Made by a program: the position numbers and the translations under genes
From: an uncultured bacterium
GTDB lineage: Bacteria > CSSED10-310 > CAZUFC01
Assembly: GCA_964619725.1 (NCBI GenBank)
Contig: CAZUFC010000198.1
Span: 1-11,344 of the forward strand
Length of the DNA: 11,344 bases
Direction: 5' to 3'
Shown: piece after piece, positions 799 through 11,344 of the stretch
How positions within the stretch are numbered: position 1 is the stretch's first letter
How the letters are laid out: every line of letters starts with the position of its first letter
Notes under the pieces: model-generated
Database searches by the model: none
The model's input: only the letters and a program-made list of their open reading frames with translations
What the model was told of the DNA's origin: nothing

Positions 799-916
799 TC
801 AAAGCTTTTTACAGTTTTTTACAGTAATCGGGATCGGGCTCGCAATCGCAATCGAAACAAAATGATGAGATATTATTCGAATTGTAACCTCAAAAAAGCT
901 TTTTTGACCAATGCCA
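799..916 (+). repeat. ~100-120 bp dispersed repeat 'R', copy 1
   Basis: CAGTAATCGGGATCGG..CGCAATCGCAATCGAAACAAAATGATG.GATATTATT.CGAATTGTAACCTCAAAA...TTTTTGACCA recurs at 1946-2070 (direct) and 8723-8824 (inverted). Confidence 0.9.
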
Positions 917-920
917 GAAT

Positions 921-1122
921 ATTCCACCCATCCAATCATCCAAACCTCCAACCCAACAATCTCACACTCTTCCAACCACCATTTCTCCCATCCAGTCAAC
1001 CACCAGATCGTCCAGTATTCCAACCGCCCAATCTGCCCCTCTTCCAACCAATCAGTCCTCCAACCACCCACTCTTCCACTCTTCCATCCAATCTTCCAAT
1101 CTCCCCCCAATCTTCCCTCCCC
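921..1122. repeat. Degenerate 8-bp tandem array (consensus ~TCCAATCT/TCCACTCT), roughly 25 units
   Basis: TCCA recurs at about 8 bp spacing. Only 7 G in ~202 nt on the + strand. Confidence 0.85.
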
Positions 1123-1242: not shown

Positions 1243-1869
1243 ATGAACGGAGCGGAAAAAAACGAAAAACATGATAGAGCCGGCGTTGAAAGAACGTCGG
1301 TTGCTTCTTACGCGCTGATCAGCCGGGATAAGCGCGATAATTCCGGCGGTTCGACCAGGGAGTGGCTTCTGCAGTGGAACTCGAAATGGAAAGCCATGAA
1401 CCTTATTGCGGGTCATCAGGAGGAGATGGATTCAAACGAACTGGCCTGCATCATAAGGGAAGTCCATGAAGAACTTTTCGATGACCTGTCGGAGGATGAA
1501 CGAGCGAAAATGAACAGAGCGGTTAGCGGCGACAATCGGAAATATAAACGGAAAATTTCGCATTGGGAGGACCCGTACATAGAAGAAGTCACGCTGATTA
1601 CCGGTGATCCCATAGAATATGTCGCCTTTTCCAAATCGAAGAACTGCCTGACGAAGTATCGTTTCCATGTTTATGATGTTAAACTCAGGAAAGACAAAAA
1701 GACAGCTCTATGTAACAAAGGTCAGGGCAAAAAAACTCTCAATGAATGGGCAAACCGGCAGGAGATTGCAAACGGCAGGACGGCCGTCGGCACGGCCATC
1801 AGCGATACGGTCAGAAAAATCATGGATATTCTAAAACTGCAGCAGGACGACAAAATTCAAAACTCCTGA
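1243..1869 (+). CDS. Nudix-fold hydrolase, 208 aa
   Basis: Nudix-box-like GHQEEMDSNELACIIREVHEEL preceded by WLLQWNSKWKAMNLI. RBS-like AAGGA lies just before the ATG. Substrate cannot be determined from sequence. Confidence 0.8.
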   Translation: MNGAEKNEKHDRAGVERTSVASYALISRDKRDNSGGSTREWLLQWNSKWKAMNLIAGHQEEMDSNELACIIREVHEELFDDLSEDERAKMNRAVSGDNRKYKRKISHWEDPYIEEVTLITGDPIEYVAFSKSKNCLTKYRFHVYDVKLRKDKKTALCNKGQGKKTLNEWANRQEIANGRTAVGTAISDTVRKIMDILKLQQDDKIQNS

Positions 1870-1945
1870 CAAAGACAACCTAACCTATTGAAATAATATG
1901 TTTTTTTGCACTGAGTCTCGGCATAAAAATTGAGCAGCTTTTTCG

Positions 1946-2070
1946 TCAAACATTTTACATTTTGTTTCAGTAATCGGGATCGGTGTCGGGGTCGCAATCG
2001 CAATCGAAACAAAATGATGGGATATTATTTCGAATTGTAACCTCAAAAGACGCATTTTTGACCAGCGCCA
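1946..2070 (+). repeat. Dispersed repeat 'R', copy 2
   Basis: Direct repeat of 799-916 with one extra hexamer unit. 55/63 identical (hand count) to the reverse complement of copy 3 over the CGCAATCGA...TTTTTGA core. Confidence 0.9.
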
Positions 2071-2181
2071 CATTTTTATATTTATCTATGCTTGATAGAA
2101 CCGACTTAATTCATTGTATTCGTTTCGATTTTTTGGTTGCGCATCCAGTGTGTTCCAGGGTTCTTAAATTCATACCTCCTA

Positions 2182-2218
2182 CCCAGGGTTGCGCTCGCAA
2201 GCTCGCTTAAACCCTGGG
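2182..2218. repeat. REP-like hairpin of a second family
   Basis: CCCAGGGTT-GCGCTCGCAAGCTCGCTTA-AACCCTGGG has a perfect 9 bp outer stem. Single copy in the window. Confidence 0.5.
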
Positions 2219-2248
2219 CTATGCTGTGGGCCCCCTACGTGATCAAGC

Positions 2249-2371
2249 TTATTGTGTCAAGCGTGTCTAATAGTCATACCAGCAAACAGGAGCGATACTC
2301 TTATGTCGGTGCAAGCCGCGTGGGGCGAAGCATGGATATAAGCGTATCGGGGTTTGTTTTTTTTCAGCCTG
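2249..2371 (+). repeat. Dispersed structured repeat 'S', left copy
   Basis: 2300-2361 aligns ungapped to the reverse complement of 8577-8638 at 49/62 identity (hand count). Weaker similarity extends to ~2249/8689. Hairpin CTTATGTC...GATATAAG. Confidence 0.85.
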
Positions 2372-2429
2372 GCGTCCAGTATCTATGGTCTTTGTGCGAT
2401 CTTCAATGATCATTAAGCATCATTAAACA

Positions 2430-2468
2430 GACAAAAACTGACTAACGGTTCACTCCATTCCGTCAGTC
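2430..2468 (-). terminator. Probable intrinsic terminator of the PFK-like gene
   Basis: Minus strand GACTGACGG-N11-CCGTTAGTC (9 bp stem, one G-U) followed by AGTTTTTGT, ~20 nt after the stop at 2488. Confidence 0.55.
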
Positions 2469-2487
2469 CCGAAACTCATATCATAAC

Positions 2488-3921
2488 CTACCCGGGGTTT
2501 ACCCAGGTCATCGTCGGCCTGTCGTTTCTGATGCCGATGAAGGGTATCTCGTCGGGATGCGCTTTCTCAGCCCAATCCCAGTCCATGGTGCAAAGGGTCT
2601 CCACGGCATGGCATCCCAGGCGGCTTGCCAGGATGATGTCTTCGGGAACGGGCATTCCCCCTCGCTGGGCATGACCCAGGTCCATGACGCGGATGTCGAG
2701 CTTGATTGATTTTCGTTGGGGGGCGAGGCTGTTCCATAATTTTCTTGTCTTGCTTTTTGGTTTATACTTTTTTCCCAATTTTTTATGTAAATGCGTCAAA
2801 GCGGTTTTAAGGCATTCGATAGGCGGTTTTTTCCAATCTTTCAAGTTTTTAGGAAATTCAACGCCCTCCGCCACAGCAACCACTGCGCTGCCGAAAGGAT
2901 TGGTTTCAATTTCTTTATAGATAAGCTTCAACAATCGCAGGATTTTGTAATAGTTCCAGGGTTCCCTGCTGCGTTCTGCCGTAAGGACAAGCCTGCAGTT
3001 ACCCGCAATGCTTGCGAATATCGGGAGGTCGCCCCGTTTTCGTCCCATGAGCTGAACCAGGAAAAGCCGTGCGGTGGCTGCACCGGTCGAACGAACCGCA
3101 TTAAGCATTATGTCGGCCATGCTTAGCGCGGAAGCGAATCCAATGGAACGATCCGACCAGGGATGAGTATCATTATCGATCGTGCCGGGCAGAGCGACCA
3201 CCGGCATTCTTATTGTTTGCCAAAGCTCTCTCGCTCCTCTAGCCGTACCGTCGCCGCCGATGACGATTAGACCTTGTTTGGAATTTTTGTTGATCTTACC
3301 GGCATTCGCATTAAGCTCATCCTTAAACTTCGGATATCGCATAGACCGCAGTATAGAACCAGCCTCCCCGGCAATATCGCAGACTCGATCCCTCGTCAGT
3401 TTTTCAGGCATTTCTCTTTTTAGCAACCAATCCATTAATCCGATATATCCGTCCTTGATCCCGTAAATAGCAGGATTCCAAATTTTTCCCTTTCCCGTGA
3501 ACCCATAATTTAATGCCGTCATGGTTACGGAGCGAATGGCTGCGTTCATTCCCGGAGCATCGCCGCCGCTTGTCAACACACCTATCTCGTTTATCCCGTT
3601 ATAGTTCTGCCGGAGCCATTCGTCCGTATTGCACGAACAGAATTCCATAAGCTCGCCGGCGTCGTTCGATATGCCGGTTTTTATCCCATAATGATTTATG
3701 AGCTGATGCAAATAATCATCATCCGGTATGTTCATGAGATGAGCAGGCTTAAAGTCTTCCCTAACCGTCGGAAACTCACCGTCCGGCAATACGGGCGGTA
3801 CTGTCGTCATGTCAATTACATAATCATCCTGAAATTCCCGCCTGGCAATCAGTTTCTGTAAACGATACATCTCAGCCTGTAAAACCCCCTTCTGCAGCAG
3901 TTGCTCGTTCGTAAACCCCAT
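2488..3921 (-). CDS. 6-phosphofructokinase (PfkA family, ATP-type signature) with N-terminal extension, 477 aa
   Basis: Motifs GVLTSGGDAPGMNAAIR, IGGDGT, PGTIDND, LMGR, VAEG and LGHAQRGG are all present in order. Gly in GGDG and in PGTIDND is the ATP-type rather than PPi-type signature. RBS AGGAGG precedes the ATG. The gene symbol is withheld because it is divergent and probably not the housekeeping copy. Confidence 0.92.
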   Translation of the reverse strand: MGFTNEQLLQKGVLQAEMYRLQKLIARREFQDDYVIDMTTVPPVLPDGEFPTVREDFKPAHLMNIPDDDYLHQLINHYGIKTGISNDAGELMEFCSCNTDEWLRQNYNGINEIGVLTSGGDAPGMNAAIRSVTMTALNYGFTGKGKIWNPAIYGIKDGYIGLMDWLLKREMPEKLTRDRVCDIAGEAGSILRSMRYPKFKDELNANAGKINKNSKQGLIVIGGDGTARGARELWQTIRMPVVALPGTIDNDTHPWSDRSIGFASALSMADIMLNAVRSTGAATARLFLVQLMGRKRGDLPIFASIAGNCRLVLTAERSREPWNYYKILRLLKLIYKEIETNPFGSAVVAVAEGVEFPKNLKDWKKPPIECLKTALTHLHKKLGKKYKPKSKTRKLWNSLAPQRKSIKLDIRVMDLGHAQRGGMPVPEDIILASRLGCHAVETLCTMDWDWAEKAHPDEIPFIGIRNDRPTMTWVNPG

Positions 3922-3972
3922 AACGATATCCTCCTGTTAACGAGGTGAAATTGATTCATATTTATCGAGAAA

Positions 3973-4002
3973 ATTGTAAACGACGCTGATGAGATATGTC
4001 AA
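3973..4002 (-). promoter_or_regulatory. Sigma70-type promoter for the PFK-like gene
   Basis: Minus strand TTGACA (4002-3997)-N18-TACAAT (3978-3973), ~50 nt upstream of the ATG. Confidence 0.7.
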
Positions 4003-4041
4003 CAGCGTTTCTTAAGCATTATAAATCAATCAATGTAAAAA

Positions 4042-4067
4042 CTGGGACCGCAGGCGTCCCGCCTGCA
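4042..4067. repeat. REP-like palindrome of a third family
   Basis: CTGGGACC-GCAGGCG-TCC-CGCCTGC: 7 bp stem with the same TCC loop as the GTAG REPs but a different foot. Single copy. Confidence 0.5.
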
Positions 4068-4187
4068 GAAGACAGGTCGCGCTTTGAACCTGCATTATGC
4101 CTTTTAAAGCCCGGAACGGATATTGGCGCCGAATAAACGATTCATATTGTTCTCCTGTCGTCAGTATGGAATGATCAGGCCCGAAAC

Positions 4188-4499
4188 TTCCGAATCCGGT
4201 TCCGAAAAGCGCCGTATATTTCCGCAAAGTTCCGCAAAATTCCGTTTCAGCATGCCCAAACCGGTCAAATCAGCCACCTAAACCTGCAAAAAGGTTCCGA
4301 ACGCTTCCGCAAAGTTCCCGAAATTTCCCCAAATTTCCGTTTCCCATTTCCGCAAAACGCGACAAATGCCGCAAAGTTCCGCATATTTCCGCTTTTGCGG
4401 AACAGGTTCCGCAAATTTTTCGATTTTTTTGCCCCAAACCATGTACGAGCCTCCCAATTTTTATTCCGAATAATTCCGCATTGTTCCGTTTAAACGGAA
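4188..4499. repeat. Degenerate 10-bp-period array (consensus ~TTCCGCAAAN)
   Basis: 15 TTCCG on +: 4188, 4200, 4220, 4230, 4240, 4295, 4305, 4335, 4348, 4377, 4387, 4407, 4464, 4474, 4484, plus in-phase variants. Ends in the perfect palindrome TTCCGTTTAAACGGAA (4484-4499). Confidence 0.85.
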
Positions 4500-4520
4500 T
4501 AAAACTCTAAACCCAATTCC

Positions 4521-4660
4521 CTAAGAAGGGCGGCGGACGACACGGAACCCGTCGCCCCTGCTCCAGGCCCCGTCAGCCGGACCGCCCCCTTCGCGACAGC
4601 CCGAGCGGCAGTCCACCGCCCCGTTGCCCCAGCAGCAGCCGAGCAAAACGCGATCGGAGC
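4521..4660 (-). other. Candidate DGR variable region (VR) at the 3' end of the FGE domain
   Basis: Coding strand 4524-4660 has 10 A in 137 nt (7%) and 73% GC, versus 35 A in 120 nt (29%) at 4681-4800. It sits at the usual VR position (RV..G..W...CRS..R....P...GFR). A hairpin follows 22 nt after the stop. Confidence 0.55.
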
Positions 4661-5423
4661 CGCTTTCAGGACCTTTTGGATCATCTACAGGCGAATTTCC
4701 GTAATAATCCGAATCAAACCGATCCCAGCACCATTCCCAGAGGTTTCCGTGCATGTCGTAAAGTTTCCAATCGTTTGGACGAAAACTTTTAACTGTTGTG
4801 GTTCGGTTTCTGTATTCTCCCATTTTGCCTTTGCCGTATGGAATTCTCCCTTCAAAATTGGCCATAGTCGAATCCAGGCTGTTGCCGTAATGAAAGTGAG
4901 TCGTGGTTCCCGCCCGGCACGCGTATTCCCATTCCGCTTCCGTGGGCAGCCTGTATCCGTCGGCCAACTGGTCACAATATACTTCGCCTTCTCCTCCTTC
5001 GTATAGGATTCTGAATTCAGGATCGGAGTAATAGCATGGTCGGAGATTTTTCTCACGTAAGGTCAACTTGTTGCAGAACTCCGCGCATTTGAACCAATTG
5101 AAATTTTCGAGGGGCAGGTCGTCCCCTTGGAAATGACTCGGATTGTCGCCCATGACATCCTTCCACATCTTTTGCGTAACCGGCGTCTGGAGCATCAGGA
5201 ACGACCTCGTCATACTCACCCGGTGCGGCGGTTCTTCACGATCAAATTCATAACCGCCCATGAGGAAACTTCCCGGGGGAATAACGACCCAGCCTTCGGG
5301 TACCGCGCCGTGCCTTGTTGCGTAAGTCTCCTTATATATTTCCTGAAGCCGCCTGACGGCATCGGTTTTTTTATTGAATTTTTCGTCGAATAACGCCTTA
5401 CCGCGCTGTTTCTCTCCATCAGT
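4521..5423 (-). CDS. FGE-sulfatase (SUMF1/CLec-fold) domain; probably the out-of-frame C-terminus of the upstream NACHT protein
   Basis: Motifs TPVTQ, YRLPTEAEWEYACRAGT, PNDWKLYDMHGNLWEWCWD and GFRVV. The frame is open from 5423, and the listed ATG at 5261 lies inside the conserved N-terminal motif WVVIPPGSFLMG, so it is unlikely to be a real start. Confidence 0.9.
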   Translation of the reverse strand, partial: TDGEKQRGKALFDEKFNKKTDAVRRLQEIYKETYATRHGAVPEGWVVIPPGSFLMGGYEFDREEPPHRVSMTRSFLMLQTPVTQKMWKDVMGDNPSHFQGDDLPLENFNWFKCAEFCNKLTLREKNLRPCYYSDPEFRILYEGGEGEVYCDQLADGYRLPTEAEWEYACRAGTTTHFHYGNSLDSTMANFEGRIPYGKGKMGEYRNRTTTVKSFRPNDWKLYDMHGNLWEWCWDRFDSDYYGNSPVDDPKGPESGSDRVLLGCCWGNGAVDCRSGCREGGGPADGAWSRGDGFRVVRRPS

Positions 5424-8341
5424 TCATCTCTTATCATTAAAGCCGCCCGCAGCAGGTTCGGATCGCCCTGGTTTTTATCTTCGATTATATTATGCAGGTT
5501 GTCTGATATTGTTTCCGCTTTTGAATTTCCTTCTTTTATCTCTTTTGCCGTGATTTCGGCCGCGAAAATTGCTGTATCTTTTGAGATATGGACTTTTTTC
5601 GCCTTTTCTGTTTTATTCTCTTTCAGGTCTGCGGCCAGGCGCTTTCCTACGAAGTATTCCCAGAAGGAACGGTGCATGAAATAAAAATTTGAATCCGGAT
5701 CGCATGTCATGTAGGCGCATCGCCGGATGTCGCTAGGATACTCTTGCTGAGCCCTGGACGTCTGAATATCCCCATGAGCTTCTACAATTTCAGGGAATTC
5801 TCTATAATTGACTTTTGCATCAGGATTGTTCTGTATAATGAAGGCGACTCCTTCAATAATCGCCAGTATCTCTTTCCGCGTGGTCAATAAAGTGCCGTAT
5901 TTTTCATCTCTTTCCAGCCATCTATCCGTAATCCATTTGTACAATGATCCAGGATCATCCACTTCTATGCTTTCATCGGTTATTTGTATTATGCCGCCTG
6001 ATTTGTCGATTTCATTGCATATCAAATCTATCAGGACCGGTCTTCGCGCCAGGTCGGCCAGGTCGTATGAACCGTGTATTATATTTCTGGCGCCGCTCAA
6101 CTTTTTTCTGTCCTGGAACCTTTTTTCCAGGTATTCCGCCACATCCTTTTCATCGAATCCCGTGAGGACCATAATATTTGACGGTTCTTCCCTCATCATG
6201 GCCGGAGCGTTTTCTATCCCTAAATTTTTGCAGGTTCTGTCGAATTCCGCCAGTCCTTTGAAATCATGAGTTCGGCTTGTCAGCATAAAATTTACATGAG
6301 TTTTCACAGATTCTCTTATCCAGTCGCCCCTGGCGCTTTTTTCCAGCATAGCGCCCGTCAGCTCGTCGAATCCGTCGAATATCAGCAGTATCGGGACCAG
6401 TTCCTTCAACAAGTCCCAGAATCCCGGCAATTCAAACCAGTCTATGCCCTTCAGTTTCAATGTCCTGGCTATGCAGACCTCGCAAGTTTTGAACCATCCA
6501 TCCCTCTCTGAATAGCCTAATCCTCGCGGACTAAAAGGAATCAGCAGCGGCAGGGGGACGTTTTCACCATCTAGGAACCGCTCCGCCAAATTTTTCGCCA
6601 GGAATTTGCATAAAAGGGTTTTACCAGTTCCATATTCGCCCAGGATGAAGATTCTGTTGGTACCGGGATTCGTTTTTATTTCATCGATCCATCGGCCGGT
6701 CAGGTAATCTTTGATGTTCCGCCGCATTTCAGCTATTTCCTTGTTGCTTTTTGTGATCTTTTCTTTATCGCAATAGCGGTATTTTCTTTCCTTTTCCCGT
6801 TCCTTTTTCTTTTCCTCTTCAAATTTTTCAATCCGCTGCCAGTCGTCCCAACCCTTGCAGCAAAACGGATCGATGTAGTATTTTTCTTTGACCGGAGGCA
6901 GCTTATTGAAATCAACGATCAACGATCGCAGGTAACCGTCCCAGCGTCCGAATCTCCGGCTTGCGTGTTCGGCTTCCTGGACGACATCATCAGGCAGCGG
7001 CTTCGGGTTATTCTGGCCGGCTACGGCAGCGATGATGCGAGCGACAGCATAATAGCGCGGCGATTTATCAGGGAAGTGCAATGCAGCAAGCGCACTGAAG
7101 TATAAGGACATACGGTATTCTTCGGGTATTTCGCATGGTTCCATCCTGGGATTCAAATGAGGTTCCAGGCGACCCAGAGCGCTCAAACGGAAGGCTGCTA
7201 TGACCTGGGTCAACCTTGCCGACGGATCATCCGGAGAAACCCCTTCTTCAATATCTTTCACAACTTCATCCGGCGCCCGGATGCTCAGCGCTCTAAACAC
7301 ATTATACAAATCTACCAGGTTCACCTTTCCGATGAACCGGTTTTCGGATAACGCCAGCGCTGCTGTCTGCACTTCCAGGTTTGCAAAATCCGCCGACAGG
7401 GGCAGTTCTCTTTCCGGCAGCTTCCAGTCTATGATAAGCGGTTTATCGCCGGCGATGAGCACGTTCATGGGTTGCAGGTCGTTGTGAGTCCTGTTTACTG
7501 TTTTTGCTTTAGTAACGGATTTACTTTCAAGATGATCGTCCAGAACTTCGTCAGGATTTTTAGTTTTTTCCCTCAGCCATTTGCATAAACGGGGATTCTC
7601 CATGAAAACGCCCCGGTCAGCCAATTGGAGGTTGTTCCTGAACCAGGCTCTTCTATCTCTTTTTTCCTGTTCGTCCTCACCTTCGAAACAGTAACGGAAC
7701 GCTTCTCCTATGCGATAATGCATCTGTTCTTTCCGTTCGCATTGAGAATATATCGCATGGTTCAGGATGGAATATGTCGCACTGATTGTTTTTCTGAATC
7801 GGTACCCGTTTATTCCGCCAGAAGACTCCAGAAACGCCGTGACGTATTCTTTCAAATTGTAATTATTCATTACGGACCCGGCAAAATCGATCTCGATTTC
7901 GTCCGCATACGCCTGGAGAAATGATGAATATCCGTTGTATTCGGGAGGTTCTACGTCAGGCAATTTCATTTTAACAATGTAGGGATTATCGCAATCTCTC
8001 AGAAACTGTCCGTTTTCATGGATTTTTTTTATTTTTGCAGTTTTGTCGACTTTTAATATTCGGGACCTGCCGGCATCAGCTTGCTTGACGTACAGCAGAA
8101 GCACGTGCGCCTCCGTGAACCCTCCGCCAAGCCTGGCGACGATCCTTACCCTGCATTCATCCGCACGGGACTTTGCCTGACCGACGACTTTATGCGGACT
8201 GTTCGTTCTGTCTTTTTGAATAATGTCGGCCTGTTCACCCGGCTGTATCCATTCTGATTTTTCAGCCCAGAACTCTATGTGTTTCTTCAGGGATGGCGGT
8301 TTGTTTGAATTAATGATTTTGATCTCGTCTATAATTTTCAT
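5216..8341 (-). CDS. Kinase/phosphotransferase (APH-like) domain + charged linker + NACHT NTPase, 1041 aa
   Basis: Kinase motifs: LGGGFTEAHV (Gly loop), RILKVD, HNDLQPMNVL (7463-7486), LIIDW, DFANLE. NACHT motifs: GEYGTGKT (6617-6640), LLIFDGFDE, MLTSRT, RRPVL, FMHRSFWEYF. RBS GAGGA precedes the ATG. Confidence 0.9.
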   Translation of the reverse strand: MKIIDEIKIINSNKPPSLKKHIEFWAEKSEWIQPGEQADIIQKDRTNSPHKVVGQAKSRADECRVRIVARLGGGFTEAHVLLLYVKQADAGRSRILKVDKTAKIKKIHENGQFLRDCDNPYIVKMKLPDVEPPEYNGYSSFLQAYADEIEIDFAGSVMNNYNLKEYVTAFLESSGGINGYRFRKTISATYSILNHAIYSQCERKEQMHYRIGEAFRYCFEGEDEQEKRDRRAWFRNNLQLADRGVFMENPRLCKWLREKTKNPDEVLDDHLESKSVTKAKTVNRTHNDLQPMNVLIAGDKPLIIDWKLPERELPLSADFANLEVQTAALALSENRFIGKVNLVDLYNVFRALSIRAPDEVVKDIEEGVSPDDPSARLTQVIAAFRLSALGRLEPHLNPRMEPCEIPEEYRMSLYFSALAALHFPDKSPRYYAVARIIAAVAGQNNPKPLPDDVVQEAEHASRRFGRWDGYLRSLIVDFNKLPPVKEKYYIDPFCCKGWDDWQRIEKFEEEKKKEREKERKYRYCDKEKITKSNKEIAEMRRNIKDYLTGRWIDEIKTNPGTNRIFILGEYGTGKTLLCKFLAKNLAERFLDGENVPLPLLIPFSPRGLGYSERDGWFKTCEVCIARTLKLKGIDWFELPGFWDLLKELVPILLIFDGFDELTGAMLEKSARGDWIRESVKTHVNFMLTSRTHDFKGLAEFDRTCKNLGIENAPAMMREEPSNIMVLTGFDEKDVAEYLEKRFQDRKKLSGARNIIHGSYDLADLARRPVLIDLICNEIDKSGGIIQITDESIEVDDPGSLYKWITDRWLERDEKYGTLLTTRKEILAIIEGVAFIIQNNPDAKVNYREFPEIVEAHGDIQTSRAQQEYPSDIRRCAYMTCDPDSNFYFMHRSFWEYFVGKRLAADLKENKTEKAKKVHISKDTAIFAAEITAKEIKEGNSKAETISDNLHNIIEDKNQGDPNLLRAALMIRDELMERNSAVRRYSTKNSIKKPMPSGGFRKYIRRLTQQGTARYPKAGSLFPREVSSWAVMNLIVKNRRTG

Positions 8342-8402
8342 GGCGTATCCTCGTCAGTTATGATCTATTTCTTCTTTGCAGGCGGTTGCTTTTTCTCAGG
8401 GG

Positions 8403-8431
8403 ATTCTAGCATATGCGCCTTCTATCGGCAA
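8403..8431 (-). promoter_or_regulatory. Sigma70-type promoter with extended -10 for the kinase-NACHT gene
   Basis: Minus strand TTGCCG (8431-8426)-N17-TAGAAT (8408-8403), preceded by TGC (TGn motif). Confidence 0.65.
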
Positions 8432-8565
8432 GTCGGCTTACTGAAGTATTCGTTTTCATTTATGATACCGTCTGAATCGGTCATTGATTAAAATTGCATT
8501 TTGAAAGGTTCCAATTTTTGCAGTCTCGACGATATATGGGATGTCTGAGATATGATAAAAACAAA

Positions 8566-8689
8566 CGGGCAGGAAGAAAAACAACCCACGATACGCTAAT
8601 GTCCATGCTCCGCTGCGAGCGGGTCGCGTCGACATAAGTGCAGATGCTCTCTTTGGTAAGCTGACTGTTACAAACACGTGACGCAAGAA
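8566..8689 (-). repeat. Dispersed structured repeat 'S', right (inverted) copy
   Basis: Reverse complement CTTATGTCGACGCGACCCGCTCGCAGCGGAGCATGGACATTAGCGTATCGTGGGTTGTTTTT matches 2300-2361. Confidence 0.85.
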
Positions 8690-8722
8690 TTCAATTGGCT
8701 CCGGTTTGTATTTTGAATTTAC

Positions 8723-8824
8723 GGCATCGATCAAAAATGCATATTTTAAGGTTACAATTAGAAAGAATTTCCCATCTTTTTGTATCGATTGCGTTTTCGG
8801 TCCCCATACCGATTACTGAAACAA
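8723..8824 (-). repeat. Dispersed repeat 'R', copy 3 (inverted)
   Basis: Reverse complement TTGTTTCAGTAATCGG...CGCAATCGATACAAAAAGATGGGAAATTCTTTCTAATTGTAACCTTAAAATATGCATTTTTGA matches copies 1 and 2. Confidence 0.9.
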
Positions 8825-8830
8825 CTGTCT

Positions 8831-9166
8831 GCAACTTAAGCAAAGGTAAATCCTTAACGATCCCGGCAGTTTCAATACCCTTGAAAGCGCCGCCGATCGG
8901 GTGTTTGTTTTGAAAAAGTGTAGGAGAAAAACAGAATGTAGAAGCGGCATCCTGCCGCTTTCCGAAAAACGTTCGATATCAGTGAGCTCTACGATATATA
9001 CCCCAAACCGGAAAAAAACCCGACCGGGTCATTCAGAATCGTCCGGCAGCAACTTAAGAAAAGGTAAATCCTTTACGACACAGGCAGCTTCAATACCCCT
9101 GAAAGCGCCGCAGGTCGTGTGGCTTTTATTTACAGAAGCGGGAACGCGGCAGGATGCCGCGTCTAC
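8831..9166. repeat. Left REP module of the RAYT locus
   Basis: GTAG REPs at 8938-8961 (+) and 9141-9166 (-). 63 bp direct repeat at 8831-8893 and 9049-9111 (56/63 identical). Confidence 0.85.
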
Positions 9167-9315: not shown

Positions 9316-9951
9316 ATGAAAAAAGACGATATAATGCCTTTTGATTCCTCTCGTTTTGATGAGCACGAAATCAGCTTTTTTGATCCTGAAACCGTTATTG
9401 AAAATATGTCGGGTAATTTACCTCATTGGCGACAGCAAAATGTTATTTATTTTGTTACGTTCAGAACGGCTTATTCTTTACCGCAACATAAGATGGAACA
9501 ATGGAAAAAAGAGAAAAAGCTTTGGCTTGAATTCCATCCTCCACCTCACAGCATTGAAGTTAAACGAGAATTTTATGAGCGTTTTCCGGCACGAATGCAT
9601 AAATGGTTAGATGCCGGGCACGGCGAATGCCTTCTTGCAAAACCAGTCTGTAAAAACATCGTTGAGAACGCTATGCGTTATTTTGATGGAGAACGTTATA
9701 ATTTGGATGTTTTCGTTATTATGCCGAATCATGTTCATGTTCTCGTTAAGCCTGTCAAAGACAACAAACTATCGGAAATCTTACATTCATGGAAATCTTT
9801 TACGGGTAATAAAATCAACGAACTGGAAGGAAAGACGGGTTCTTTCCGGCAGAAGGAATCCTTCGATCATATTGTGCGCGATGAATATCAGCTTGAGAGA
9901 TTCAGACAATATATAAGAGACAATCCAAAGATGATCAAACGTAAATTTTAA
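9316..9951 (+). CDS. REP-associated tyrosine transposase (RAYT / TnpA-REP, Y1 HUH family), 211 aa
   Basis: NLPHW, YFVTF, VIMPNHVH (HUH), WKSFT, QKESFDHIVR and YIRDNP (catalytic Tyr). Flanked on both sides by GTAG REPs. The start could alternatively be the ATG at 9334. Confidence 0.92.
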   Translation: MKKDDIMPFDSSRFDEHEISFFDPETVIENMSGNLPHWRQQNVIYFVTFRTAYSLPQHKMEQWKKEKKLWLEFHPPPHSIEVKREFYERFPARMHKWLDAGHGECLLAKPVCKNIVENAMRYFDGERYNLDVFVIMPNHVHVLVKPVKDNKLSEILHSWKSFTGNKINELEGKTGSFRQKESFDHIVRDEYQLERFRQYIRDNPKMIKRKF

Positions 9952-10071: not shown

Positions 10072-10303
10072 AACCTTTTCGTAAGTCGTCGATTCTGAAC
10101 GACTCTGTCGGTTTTTTACCGGATTGGGTTGTTGGTCTTAGAGCTCACTGATATTGAAAGCTTTTCGGAAAGCGGCAGGATGCCGCTTCTACTTTCTATT
10201 TTTCTTCTACGGCTTTTCAATCCAAACATCGATGCTTTTTCTTCGATCTTAGACGCGGCATCCTGCCGCGTTCCGGCGGCGCTTTCATTGGGGTTGAATT
10301 GCC
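10072..10303. repeat. Right REP module of the RAYT locus
   Basis: REPs at 10169-10192 (-) and 10249-10274 (+, with TTAG foot). The block is an inverted copy of ~8864-9068; 10139-10192 versus 8938-8991 is 51/54 identical. Confidence 0.85.
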
Positions 10304-10576
10304 CGAGGTCGATTGAGACATCATGCGTATCGTGCGTTGTTTTTCTTGCATGTTCTTCCGGTAAGCATGCTCAACGCAAATTTTTTTCCAAGGCAAGGCA
10401 TGATGATTCGACAATCAGTTTCGCATACGGAGCGCAGTCGCCGGACAACGAGAATCCATTCAAAATAGGCAAGCTAATATGCCATTCATTGGAAATCATA
10501 GAAGGCTACCCGGCGTAAGAAAAACAAATGAAGGAAACATAAAGCGTTGCTGCATTTGTCCTTCAGAACTCCATTG

Positions 10577-10630
10577 TTAAACTTCCCCCTGGCAAAATGA
10601 AGCTTCGACACATCTTGCCGGGGAGTTTAA
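10577..10630. repeat. Imperfect ~20 bp inverted repeat / stem-loop
   Basis: TTAAACTTCCCCCTGGCAAAATG ... CATCTTGCCGGGGAGTTTAA. Confidence 0.55.
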
Positions 10631-10742
10631 ATTGCGATATGTGCGGCAGGATTTCAGATTGTGCAGAAGTAAAAGTTGTCGATCCTGAAAGGTAGCGGCG
10701 TATCAATTCACGGTCTGCGGATTCGATTCGCTTTTCGATGAA

Positions 10743-11344
10743 TCATTCCGTTTTATTCATGATACCGTCTCTAAAGTTCCACGGAATCCAGAGTTTGGGA
10801 TTCTTGCGAACATCCTCTCGATGAAACTGAAGCGCGGTTAGATAATCGAATGAATTCACTTCAGCAGAAACGCAGGTATGAATTATGCTCATGAATATAT
10901 CGCCGATTTCTGCTCCTCGCCAGGTTTTATAAAAAAGCGAATTTTTCCGGTGCAGAATCGTTCTTTCGAGGGCCTGCTCGCACAGATTATTGTAGATCGG
11001 CGCTCATTCGATTCTGAGAAACAGGATGAGCGGCTCCCAGTGTTTCTTCATGTAATTGAAAACCTTTCCAAGCCTGGAATTCGGTTCGACCTTCCTTTGA
11101 TCCAATTGATTCTGCATCCATATTTTCAGTTAATCCATCACAGGACCGCTCTCGTCCTGATGAAGCTTCAGGCATTCGTCCGTCGTGAGGTTTTCCCTTT
11201 TGGCCAGCTCTTCGACATGGAATACCCGGACGAGGGCTTCTGTCACATGGCGGCATTCATCCGGCCAAACGGGAGCAGCATCGATCTTTTTCATAAACCG
11301 TCGCCTGAACCGGCACGGATGCCGTGAAGCGCAAAAGAACCTCG
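10743..11344 (-). pseudogene. IS66-family transposase, decayed 3' part running off the window
   Basis: Hand translation: QDESGPVMD*LKIWMQNQLDQRKVEPNSRLGKVFNYMKKHWEPLILFLRIE*APIYNNLCEQALERTILHRKNSLFYKTWRGAEIGDIFMSIIHTC...NSFDYLTALQ...WIPWNF. In-frame stops at 11130-11132 and 11004-11006, and a frameshift near 11190. Confidence 0.88.

Follow-up and report, generated by a model that had tools for sequence, protein, structure and literature searches.

A split NACHT-lectin sensor gene, a rare extended phosphofructokinase gene and a Nudix-like gene on a repeat-riddled contig of an uncultured bacterium

The bNACHT and Avs proteins are bacterial antiphage proteins which resemble the nucleotide-binding leucine-rich repeat (NLR) receptors and which follow an effector-NTPase-sensor logic. 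Here, we describe an 11,344-nucleotide (nt) stretch of DNA from an uncultured bacterium (the window, representing the entire contig C198) in which a gene of this layout, encoding a kinase-like head, a NACHT NTPase, and a lectin-fold domain, lies beside a gene for an extended PfkA-family phosphofructokinase (PFK) and a gene for a Nudix-like protein. Proteins that combine STAND/NACHT modules with C-type-lectin (CLec) domains diversified by diversity-generating retroelements (DGRs) are presented as “putative antigen sensors,” with TIR, Pkinase, and Metallophos heads among them, in excerpts of Dore et al. 2024 (PMC10907252). FGS domains in conflict systems, together with rare active APH-type kinases as effectors, are treated in excerpts of Kaur et al. 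2020 (PMC7159879). With regard to the PFK, the excerpted text of a review (PMC12203962) describes “decorated” PFKs with N-terminal extensions and helical inserts, which are pyrophosphate (PPi) dependent.

An initial, sequence-only reading of the window regarded the three genes as one candidate conflict module. We propose that the window is, rather, a repeat-riddled accessory stretch in which a split NLR-like sensor gene, a rare PfkA gene, and a Nudix-like gene are probably independent neighbors, their arrangement being a juxtaposition and not a system. The host genome (9.17 Mb in 344 contigs; completeness 90.9%, contamination 6.5%) belongs to a small candidate phylum represented by 14 species genomes in the collection searched, and the sequencing runs which contain window DNA are labeled as microbial mat metagenome, with no RNA data set listed among them. 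The site at which the sensor gene is split (see below) is covered by contigs from three runs (X1, X2, and X3) of one study, probably sampling one population, at a depth of 2.7 to 8×.

Relationship between the three genes

The gene positions of the initial reading were borne out by the open reading frame (ORF) map and by Pfam matches. The features on which the argument turns are listed below.

1243-1869, plus strand: divergent Nudix-like ORF, 208 amino acids (aa), REVHEE at residue 72
1946-2077, plus strand: copy of dispersed repeat R, between the Nudix-like gene and the PFK gene
2488-3921, minus strand: PfkA-family kinase of 477 aa, carrying an N-terminal extension (112 aa) and an insert (approximately 50 aa), catalytic and sugar-phosphate-binding motifs kept
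4060-4044, minus strand: terminator-like hairpin, followed at 4002-3973 by a sigma-70-like site (TTGACA-18-TACAAT), 52 nt before the PFK start
4188-4488: TTCCG array (CGGAA on the minus strand; family D1), 15 motifs in 297 nt, in the spacer between the NACHT/FGE gene and the PFK gene
4521-5423, minus strand: FGE-sulfatase/C-type-lectin-fold domain, in the -1 frame relative to NACHT, first ATG at 5261
5216-8341, minus strand: kinase-NACHT ORF, 1,041 aa, with a kinase-like (TCAD9/APH-type) region at residues ~1-520 and a NACHT module at ~540-935

The genome harbors 15 NACHT matches, 11 of which score over the cutoff, and none of the 14 located outside the window (0/14) shares a contig with any of the three PFK matches. 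Likewise, no PFK match was found on the contigs of the six intact genes of effector-NACHT-FGE architecture which this genome encodes (see below). The Nudix-like gene is convergent to the PFK gene, and both a copy of repeat R and another dispersed repeat lie between the two. Evidence of a common adaptor domain was not obtained, as the best alignment of the PFK extension to the NACHT protein (E = 0.64) spanned 11 residues and its comparison with the Nudix-like protein returned no alignment. The inclusion of the PFK and the Nudix-like protein in one system with the sensor is, on these grounds and in view of the 600-nt spacer with its promoter-like site, unsupported.

The initial reading had also described copies of repeat R as enclosing the genes, and such copies do flank them, at approximately 799-925 (plus strand) and, inverted, at 8723-8828 (minus strand). 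A further copy, at 1946-2077, lies inside, and because it falls between the Nudix-like gene and the PFK gene, the three genes do not form a single enclosed unit. Moreover, R (approximately 125 nt) is dispersed across the genome, being detected as 501 high-scoring segment pairs (HSPs) on 211 of the 344 contigs; given some 500 copies genome-wide, flanking by R is not special and marks no island. A second dispersed element of approximately 210 nt (~475-690 in the window) gave 451 HSPs on 206 contigs, and the summed contig depth over the two repeats reached 341 and 3,156, versus approximately 8 for unique sequence. A joint of position 2061 to position 8573, present in contigs of X1 and X2, was considered as a candidate empty site and rejected: since its 30-nt sides belong to dispersed repeats and are separated by 39 other letters, it was read as another repeat copy.

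The PFK gene is, as the initial reading had it, co-oriented with the sensor gene and directly downstream of it, its start being located 600 nt past the FGE stop. A promoter of its own probably drives its transcription, as suggested by the terminator-like hairpin and the subsequent sigma-70-like site, the best of the region (11/12 consensus match). The same spacer contains the TTCCG array, in which the spacing is 10, 20, or 30 nt in 10 of 14 gaps, against a genome average of 4.45 motifs per kb on both strands, and which may constitute a protein-binding array. The only other genome cluster of such motifs (at least 9 in 330 nt), on contig C7, was rejected as a comparable array, as it forms part of a Glu-rich repeat in coding sequence. 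A short ORF of 13 codons (4104-4145, minus strand), its ATG preceded at 7 nt by a Shine-Dalgarno-like AGGAG, was also observed just before the terminator-like hairpin.

Several observations weigh against independence of the three genes. Three near-orphan genes together on one 11-kb contig are unusual, and the PFK gene is both co-oriented with and immediately 3′ of the sensor gene. The promoter-like and terminator-like sites which would separate them are, furthermore, weak evidence, as consensus counts in the region are no higher than in shuffled sequence (14 versus 12.0 ± 3.6 and 10 versus 10.4 ± 3.4, respectively). Juxtaposition is a default and not a demonstration; the neighborhood evidence covers this genome, and a conserved pairing may exist elsewhere.

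Alternatively, the three genes would form one conflict system, in which the kinase head would use, or signal with, a phosphorylated sugar or nucleotide whose production, drainage, or resetting would fall to the PFK and the Nudix-like protein. The position and orientation of the PFK gene would fit such a system, as would the rarity of all three genes (four relatives of the PFK, one of the Nudix-like protein, and none of the sensor head), a very long stem of the PFK clade, which is consistent with a change of role, a PFK that is not the housekeeping enzyme, and a phased motif array unique to the spacer between the sensor gene and the PFK gene. We nevertheless hold this explanation to be improbable. 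Scans of genome, metagenome, and viral contigs and of plasmids yielded no member of the PFK clade, and no conserved neighborhood emerged; the six sensors of the same architecture in this genome have no PFK match on their contigs; the 600-nt spacer carries promoter-like and terminator-like sites; the Nudix-like gene is convergent and located behind two dispersed repeats; a common adaptor domain is lacking; and the PFK keeps all of the fructose-6-phosphate-type residues. In addition, PADLOC defense models returned no match for the PFK or for the Nudix-like ORF, their only match among the three genes being a weak AAA match (PtuA, E = 2e-4) of the sensor ORF, which argues against such a module. 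A more specific version, in which the extended PFK clade would be a non-glycolytic, dedicated partner of NLR-like sensors, controlled by the CGGAA array and producing or consuming a phosphosugar that would serve the APH-like head as substrate or signal, with the Nudix-like protein resetting the system, is considered very improbable. No such pairing was found in excerpts of the literature on biological conflict systems, STAND proteins, and phosphofructokinase, including those of PMC7159879 and PMC12203962. If the pairing were true, a sugar-phosphate enzyme would be added to bacterial NLR-type immunity as a new, undescribed metabolite-based arm, which the evidence assembled here does not support.

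The split sensor gene and its sister genes

The large gene can be interpreted by comparison with its sister genes in the same genome. Its finer features are as follows.

7367-7561, minus strand: kinase catalytic-loop region, residues 261-325, HNDLQPMN at 286 and IIDW at 303
6110-6655, minus strand: NACHT domain core, Walker A GEYGTGKT at residue 568, Walker B-like LLIFDGFDE at 652
5366-5372, minus strand: A7 run in the X_XXY_YYZ phase of the NACHT frame, where a -1 shift joins the NACHT frame to the FGE frame
4524-4634, minus strand: adenine-poor, variable-region-like C-terminal tail of the lectin-fold domain, adenine fraction of 0.07 over its last 120 nt

The predicted protein carries a NACHT domain typical of STAND NTPases (PF05729, 39.1 bits versus a cutoff of 26.7, residues 563-744). 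Among 18 ORFs scanned in this genome, six intact single ORFs of 880 to 1,250 aa display an [effector]-NACHT-FGE architecture, their N-terminal modules being Metallophos in two cases, DUF4062 in two, TIR in one, and no known domain in one; from these six, FGE emerges as the C-terminal module and the N-terminal module as a swappable one. The assignment of the large gene to an NLR-like STAND sensor class of known [variable effector]-NACHT-[lectin-fold FGE] layout is thus supported at the sequence level. The effector-NTPase-sensor interpretation offered by the initial reading is upheld by these six ORFs of the same layout, the class itself being known from the excerpted text of PMC10907252.

Three of the six intact sensors are adjacent to a reverse transcriptase (RT) gene of 333 to 335 aa, one such gene being located beside the C9 sensor gene and one between the two C26 sensor genes. 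The two DGR cassettes are organized as follows.

C9:100822-106912 (L095 4823-10913): Metallophos-NACHT-FGE gene, HTH_17 protein gene, and RT gene
C26:28101-36784 (L096 4102-12785): two DUF4062-NACHT-FGE genes around an RT gene and an HTH_17 protein gene

As the lectin-fold tails in these cassettes match nearby template repeats at 86 to 89% identity (88.6% over 123 nt for C9; 86 to 87% over 137 nt for C26), the cassettes are of the working type. The window gene shares with such targets a lectin-fold (FGE) domain with a variable-region-like tail, which has the lowest adenine fraction among the nine tails compared (0.07 versus 0.10 to 0.12 for verified DGR targets and 0.20 to 0.24 for two others, that of C23 being 0.24). 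Weighing against its inclusion among DGR targets, neither blastn nor an adenine-wildcard scan recovered a template repeat for the window tail from the assembly, an absence which is unproven given a completeness of 90.9%. The best non-self match in the latter scan carried 19 non-adenine mismatches in 111 positions, while the control recovered the C9 template repeat. A cognate RT for the window copy was likewise not found in the assembly.

By analogy with bacterial NACHT and Avs proteins, the lectin-fold tail, which is of the kind rewritten by DGRs elsewhere in this genome, would bind a ligand; ligand binding would release NACHT-driven oligomerization, and oligomerization would switch on the kinase head, whose target may be a small molecule or a protein.

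In the gene as assembled, this sequence of events would be interrupted. The head and NACHT module share one ORF, whereas the sensor domain is linked to them only via a shift at the A7 run. The FGE ORF, if read from its ATG, covers 4521-5261 (minus strand; 246 aa), overlaps the NACHT ORF by 46 nt, and scores 126.7 bits against PF03781 from model position 23 onward; read from 5423, up to which the frame is open, it scores 141.6 bits over model positions 4 to 255. The Pfam match, which begins 11 residues upstream of the ATG, thus indicates that the domain belongs to a longer polypeptide. The A7 run is the sole homopolymer of at least 7 in the overlap zone, and a -1 slip at this site meets no stop and enters the FGE frame, for a notional product of approximately 1,273 aa. 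The description of a kinase-NACHT(-FGE) gene in the initial reading stands, accordingly, as to the domains present; the FGE domain is out of frame, and their fusion would occur only via a frameshift. Because the -1 frame change at A7 uncouples the sensor tail, the gene as assembled is most likely off or decaying, or dependent on slippage.

An assembly or sequencing error, with one intact kinase-NACHT-FGE ORF as the true gene, could be suspected from the homopolymeric nature of the site, the low coverage of the organism (approximately 8× in X1), and the intactness of all other genes of this architecture in the genome. Independent contigs of three runs are, however, identical letter for letter across A7, covering it with 0 differences and 0 gaps (X1, 5277-8962; X2, 5300-6134; X3, 5321-5555). 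This agreement places the frame change in the DNA of the sampled population as opposed to a one-off assembly slip, and an error is, in our view, decidedly unlikely; contigs cannot, for their part, reveal minority length variants at A7.

The frame change may, alternatively, be functional, in that ribosomal, transcriptional, or replicative -1 slippage at A7 would set the ratio of the 1,041-aa protein to the approximately 1,273-aa sensor. A-runs in Lys codons are classic slippery sites in dnaX and in insertion sequence (IS) elements, and the A7 run occupies exactly the X_XXY_YYZ phase from which a -1 slip enters the stop-free FGE frame, with identical letters in contigs from the three runs. The FGE frame is, moreover, open, and at 141.6 bits the domain is not visibly decayed. 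In opposition to this, a shift is needed by none of the six intact paralogous architectures (0/6); no strong stimulatory structure was identified downstream, the next 86 nt having a minimum free energy of -24.5 kcal/mol, a value without a shuffle control; the depth of 2.7 to 8× leaves minority length variants hidden in contigs; and the three runs come from a single study, probably of a single population. The same facts would follow from a recent inactivating mutation. Functional slippage is, on balance, unlikely, and the same low likelihood is attached to its extension, by which slippage would serve as a built-in regulator or phase switch of a dangerous gene.

The most divergent part of the protein is its head. 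An exhaustive search of 1.84 billion representative proteins with the 1,041-aa ORF (HMMER) returned 2,034 proteins at E ≤ 0.001, and among the matches listed the best stretch lay within residues 515-972, i.e., the NACHT module, in all 149 non-query proteins (149/149); this module was matched by 802 library proteins at E ≤ 1e-10. A word-indexed search produced five non-self matches, each covering 34 to 42% of the kinase-NACHT query. The listed matches being confined to the NACHT module, the head (residues 1-520) is without a detectable full-length relative. When the protein was compared with plasmids, 13 records matched, in the NACHT module only, and tblastn detected no paralogue of the head elsewhere in the genome.

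The head is, as judged from its sequence, kinase-like. TCAD9 (PF19974) matches residues 261-325 at 41.9 bits (cutoff, 40), or 44.6 bits when residues 1-500 are used; weak RIO1 and APH matches occur at the same place; motifs for the catalytic loop and for Mg binding are present (HNDLQPMN and IIDW); and the ESM Atlas clusters nearest to residues 1-520 carry TCAD9 and APH (0.89). This assignment is weakened by the span of the TCAD9 match, which covers 63 of 429 model positions (278-340) and only barely clears the cutoff, by a score of 37.7 bits, below the cutoff, in the six-frame search, and by a low-confidence predicted structure of the head (AlphaFold; predicted local distance difference test [pLDDT] score, 37.7). 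A relative in the phylum encodes a 948-aa protein (G011:C193; L132 8549-11395) in which a full TCAD9 domain (195 bits) is fused to a dual-specificity phosphatase, adjoining a Ser/Thr kinase gene and a RecQ gene. Being the one true TCAD9 protein in the phylum, it was considered as a counterpart of the window head and rejected, as it lacks NACHT and has no significant pairwise similarity to that head. The weaker TCAD9 matches scanned in the phylum were mostly Pkinase-AAA_16-TPR proteins.

The extended phosphofructokinase, the Nudix-like gene, and neighboring mobile DNA

The 477-aa PFK has the domain and residues of the PfkA family (PF00365, 208.2 bits versus a cutoff of 30.9). GGDAPGMN, the ATP-type GGDG, TIDND (at residue 247), MGR, E352, R411, and GHAQRGG are identical in the window PFK, four relatives, and two ordinary PfkA proteins, the invariant columns including G119-N126, G222-G225, T247-D251, M292-R294, E352, and R411. 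These motifs we take, from what is known of E. coli PfkA, to be ATP-type, sugar-phosphate-binding, and catalytic. All NCBIfam cutoffs are missed (NF002872, 225.3 versus 253; TIGR02482, 187.2 versus 371.35; TIGR02483, 161.9 versus 430.55). The same build was recognized in only four relatives among 8,000 scored candidates (49 to 51% identity, 383 to 485 bits), after which the next match scored 164 bits and covered the core only. In a tree of 26 rows, comprising 24 picked from 120 listed matches and the two other PFKs of this genome (C97 and C2), the five proteins formed a clade with a support of 100/100, its stem measuring 2.97 substitutions per site, while the C97 and C2 PFKs were placed elsewhere.

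The 112-aa extension carries a conserved helix-like motif. It matched no Pfam family even at E ≤ 10, was absent from all 13 other phylum genomes (13/13; completeness, 60 to 96%), and had no paralogue in its own genome by tblastn. Members of the clade were not encountered in any of the contig or plasmid sets scanned: in genome contigs, 80 loci were kept, all at ≤36% identity and none covering the extension, GGDAPGMN having drawn in ordinary pfkA; metagenome contigs yielded one locus, at 33% identity and not a clade member; the 25 loci in viral contigs were core-only; and none of 68 plasmid records covered at least 80% of the query. The viral locus L127, a candidate carrier of the extension, was dismissed as an ordinary pfkA at the end of a contig, its start lying fewer than 35 codons upstream.

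Of the genome's two further PFKs, that of C97 passes TIGR02483 (434.4 versus 430.55) and that of C2 passes NF002872 (263.8 versus 253). As these pass curated cutoffs and the window PFK passes none, the latter is not the sole or housekeeping pfkA, and the possibility that it might be, by which the initial reading proposed that its module could be refuted, falls away. The label of a divergent phosphofructokinase is likewise vindicated by the long-stem clade and the scores below every NCBIfam cutoff. The PFK is, from its sequence, a very rare, fast-evolved PfkA subclade member keeping ATP-type and fructose-6-phosphate-type residues, its most likely role being that of a sugar-phosphate kinase isozyme to which an extension for regulation or assembly has been added.

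The Nudix-like ORF is a real gene, having one relative (44% identity, E = 6.6e-39), which retains REVHEE, the core of the Nudix box. Its score against PF00293 (14.2 bits, E = 0.046) falls below the cutoff of 21.1, its highest-ranking match in the PDB is to the Nudix domain of Dcp2 (E = 0.34), and ESM Atlas places it near Nudix proteins (0.96, with 23 of 30 matches in the NUDIX set), which is a lead only. Its predicted structure is of too low a confidence to be of use (AlphaFold; pLDDT, 43.3), and no paralogue was detected in its own genome by tblastn. Where the initial reading saw a Nudix hydrolase, the gene itself, its REVHEE core, and the Atlas lead endure, whereas the Pfam cutoff is not reached; the product is, at best, a very divergent Nudix protein, as far as its residues indicate.

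Between the flanking R copy and this gene lies a degenerate CCAACC-rich direct-repeat tract (918-1090; D2), which gives rise to spurious Pro/Ser/Asn-rich ORFs on both strands. To the right of the sensor gene, one further gene was discerned.

9316-9951, plus strand: repetitive extragenic palindrome (REP)-associated tyrosine transposase (RAYT)-like gene, Y1_Tnp at 27.8 bits versus a cutoff of 23

Its score against NF047646 (57.7 bits) is under the cutoff of 80. It is flanked by inverted REP-type repeats of 119 nt (8902-9020 and 10110-10228; I1), the arms of which are 84% complementary, as is characteristic of a REP/RAYT arrangement. The contig's right end may belong to a retroelement or to some other mobile repeat. 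Stretches of 10230-11344 are 79 to 92% identical to contigs C326, C122, and C274, the last of which bears a 506-aa reverse-transcriptase frame downstream of the part it has in common with the window end, and in the runs a variant of much higher abundance (depth, 157), with 38 differences, covers the same region. Rfam and tRNA scans returned no match.

Comparison with described systems

In comparison with bacterial ATP-dependent PfkA enzymes, the window PFK keeps PF00365, GGDG, TIDND, MGR, and H-x-Q-R-G-G; it differs in scoring under the NCBIfam cutoffs, in forming its own clade, and in its extension, which has no Pfam match. An extension and an insert are features which it shares with decorated PFKs as these are described in the excerpted review (PMC12203962), where the decorated enzymes are PPi dependent, in contrast to the ATP-type GGDG of the window PFK. 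The locus thereby provides a pointer to a very rare, fast-evolved PfkA subclade.

The Nudix box follows the consensus GX5EX7REUXEEXGU. Relative to it, the box of the window protein is partly canonical: the pre-box spacing deviates by a single residue, and another residue stands in place of the glycine that follows EE. Its likeness to Nudix hydrolases (PF00293) consists of the retained REVHEE, the Nudix clusters among its Atlas neighbors, and weak similarity to Dcp2.

The catalytic-loop region of the sensor head matches the TCAD9/APH-like kinases of ternary conflict systems, with which the Atlas clusters agree. Unlike those systems, the window contains no vWA-MoxR partners, and the match extends over only 63 of 429 TCAD9 positions.

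With the DGR-associated NACHT-CLec sensors, as described in the excerpts of PMC10907252, the window gene has in common the effector-NACHT-FGE layout and an adenine-poor tail, in a host which possesses bona fide DGR cassettes. It departs from them in lacking a template repeat or RT in the assembly, in a lectin domain that is out of frame, and in a TCAD9/APH-like head without detectable full-length relatives. One further head type, an APH/TCAD9-like kinase, would in this way be added to the effector-NACHT-lectin scaffold, in a genome which also runs DGRs on such sensors, and the gene offers a natural example of an effector-NACHT-lectin sensor split at a slippery A-run.

Compared with bNACHT and Avs, finally, the predicted sensor of the window protein is a lectin fold as opposed to TPR or other repeats, and its PADLOC match is limited to the weak AAA hit (PtuA), whereas the pairing of a Walker A with a Walker B motif, read here from the primary structure, is that of the bacterial NLR-like proteins, and their tripartite logic would be matched in one polypeptide if a shift at the A7 run joined the lectin-fold domain to the head and NACHT module.

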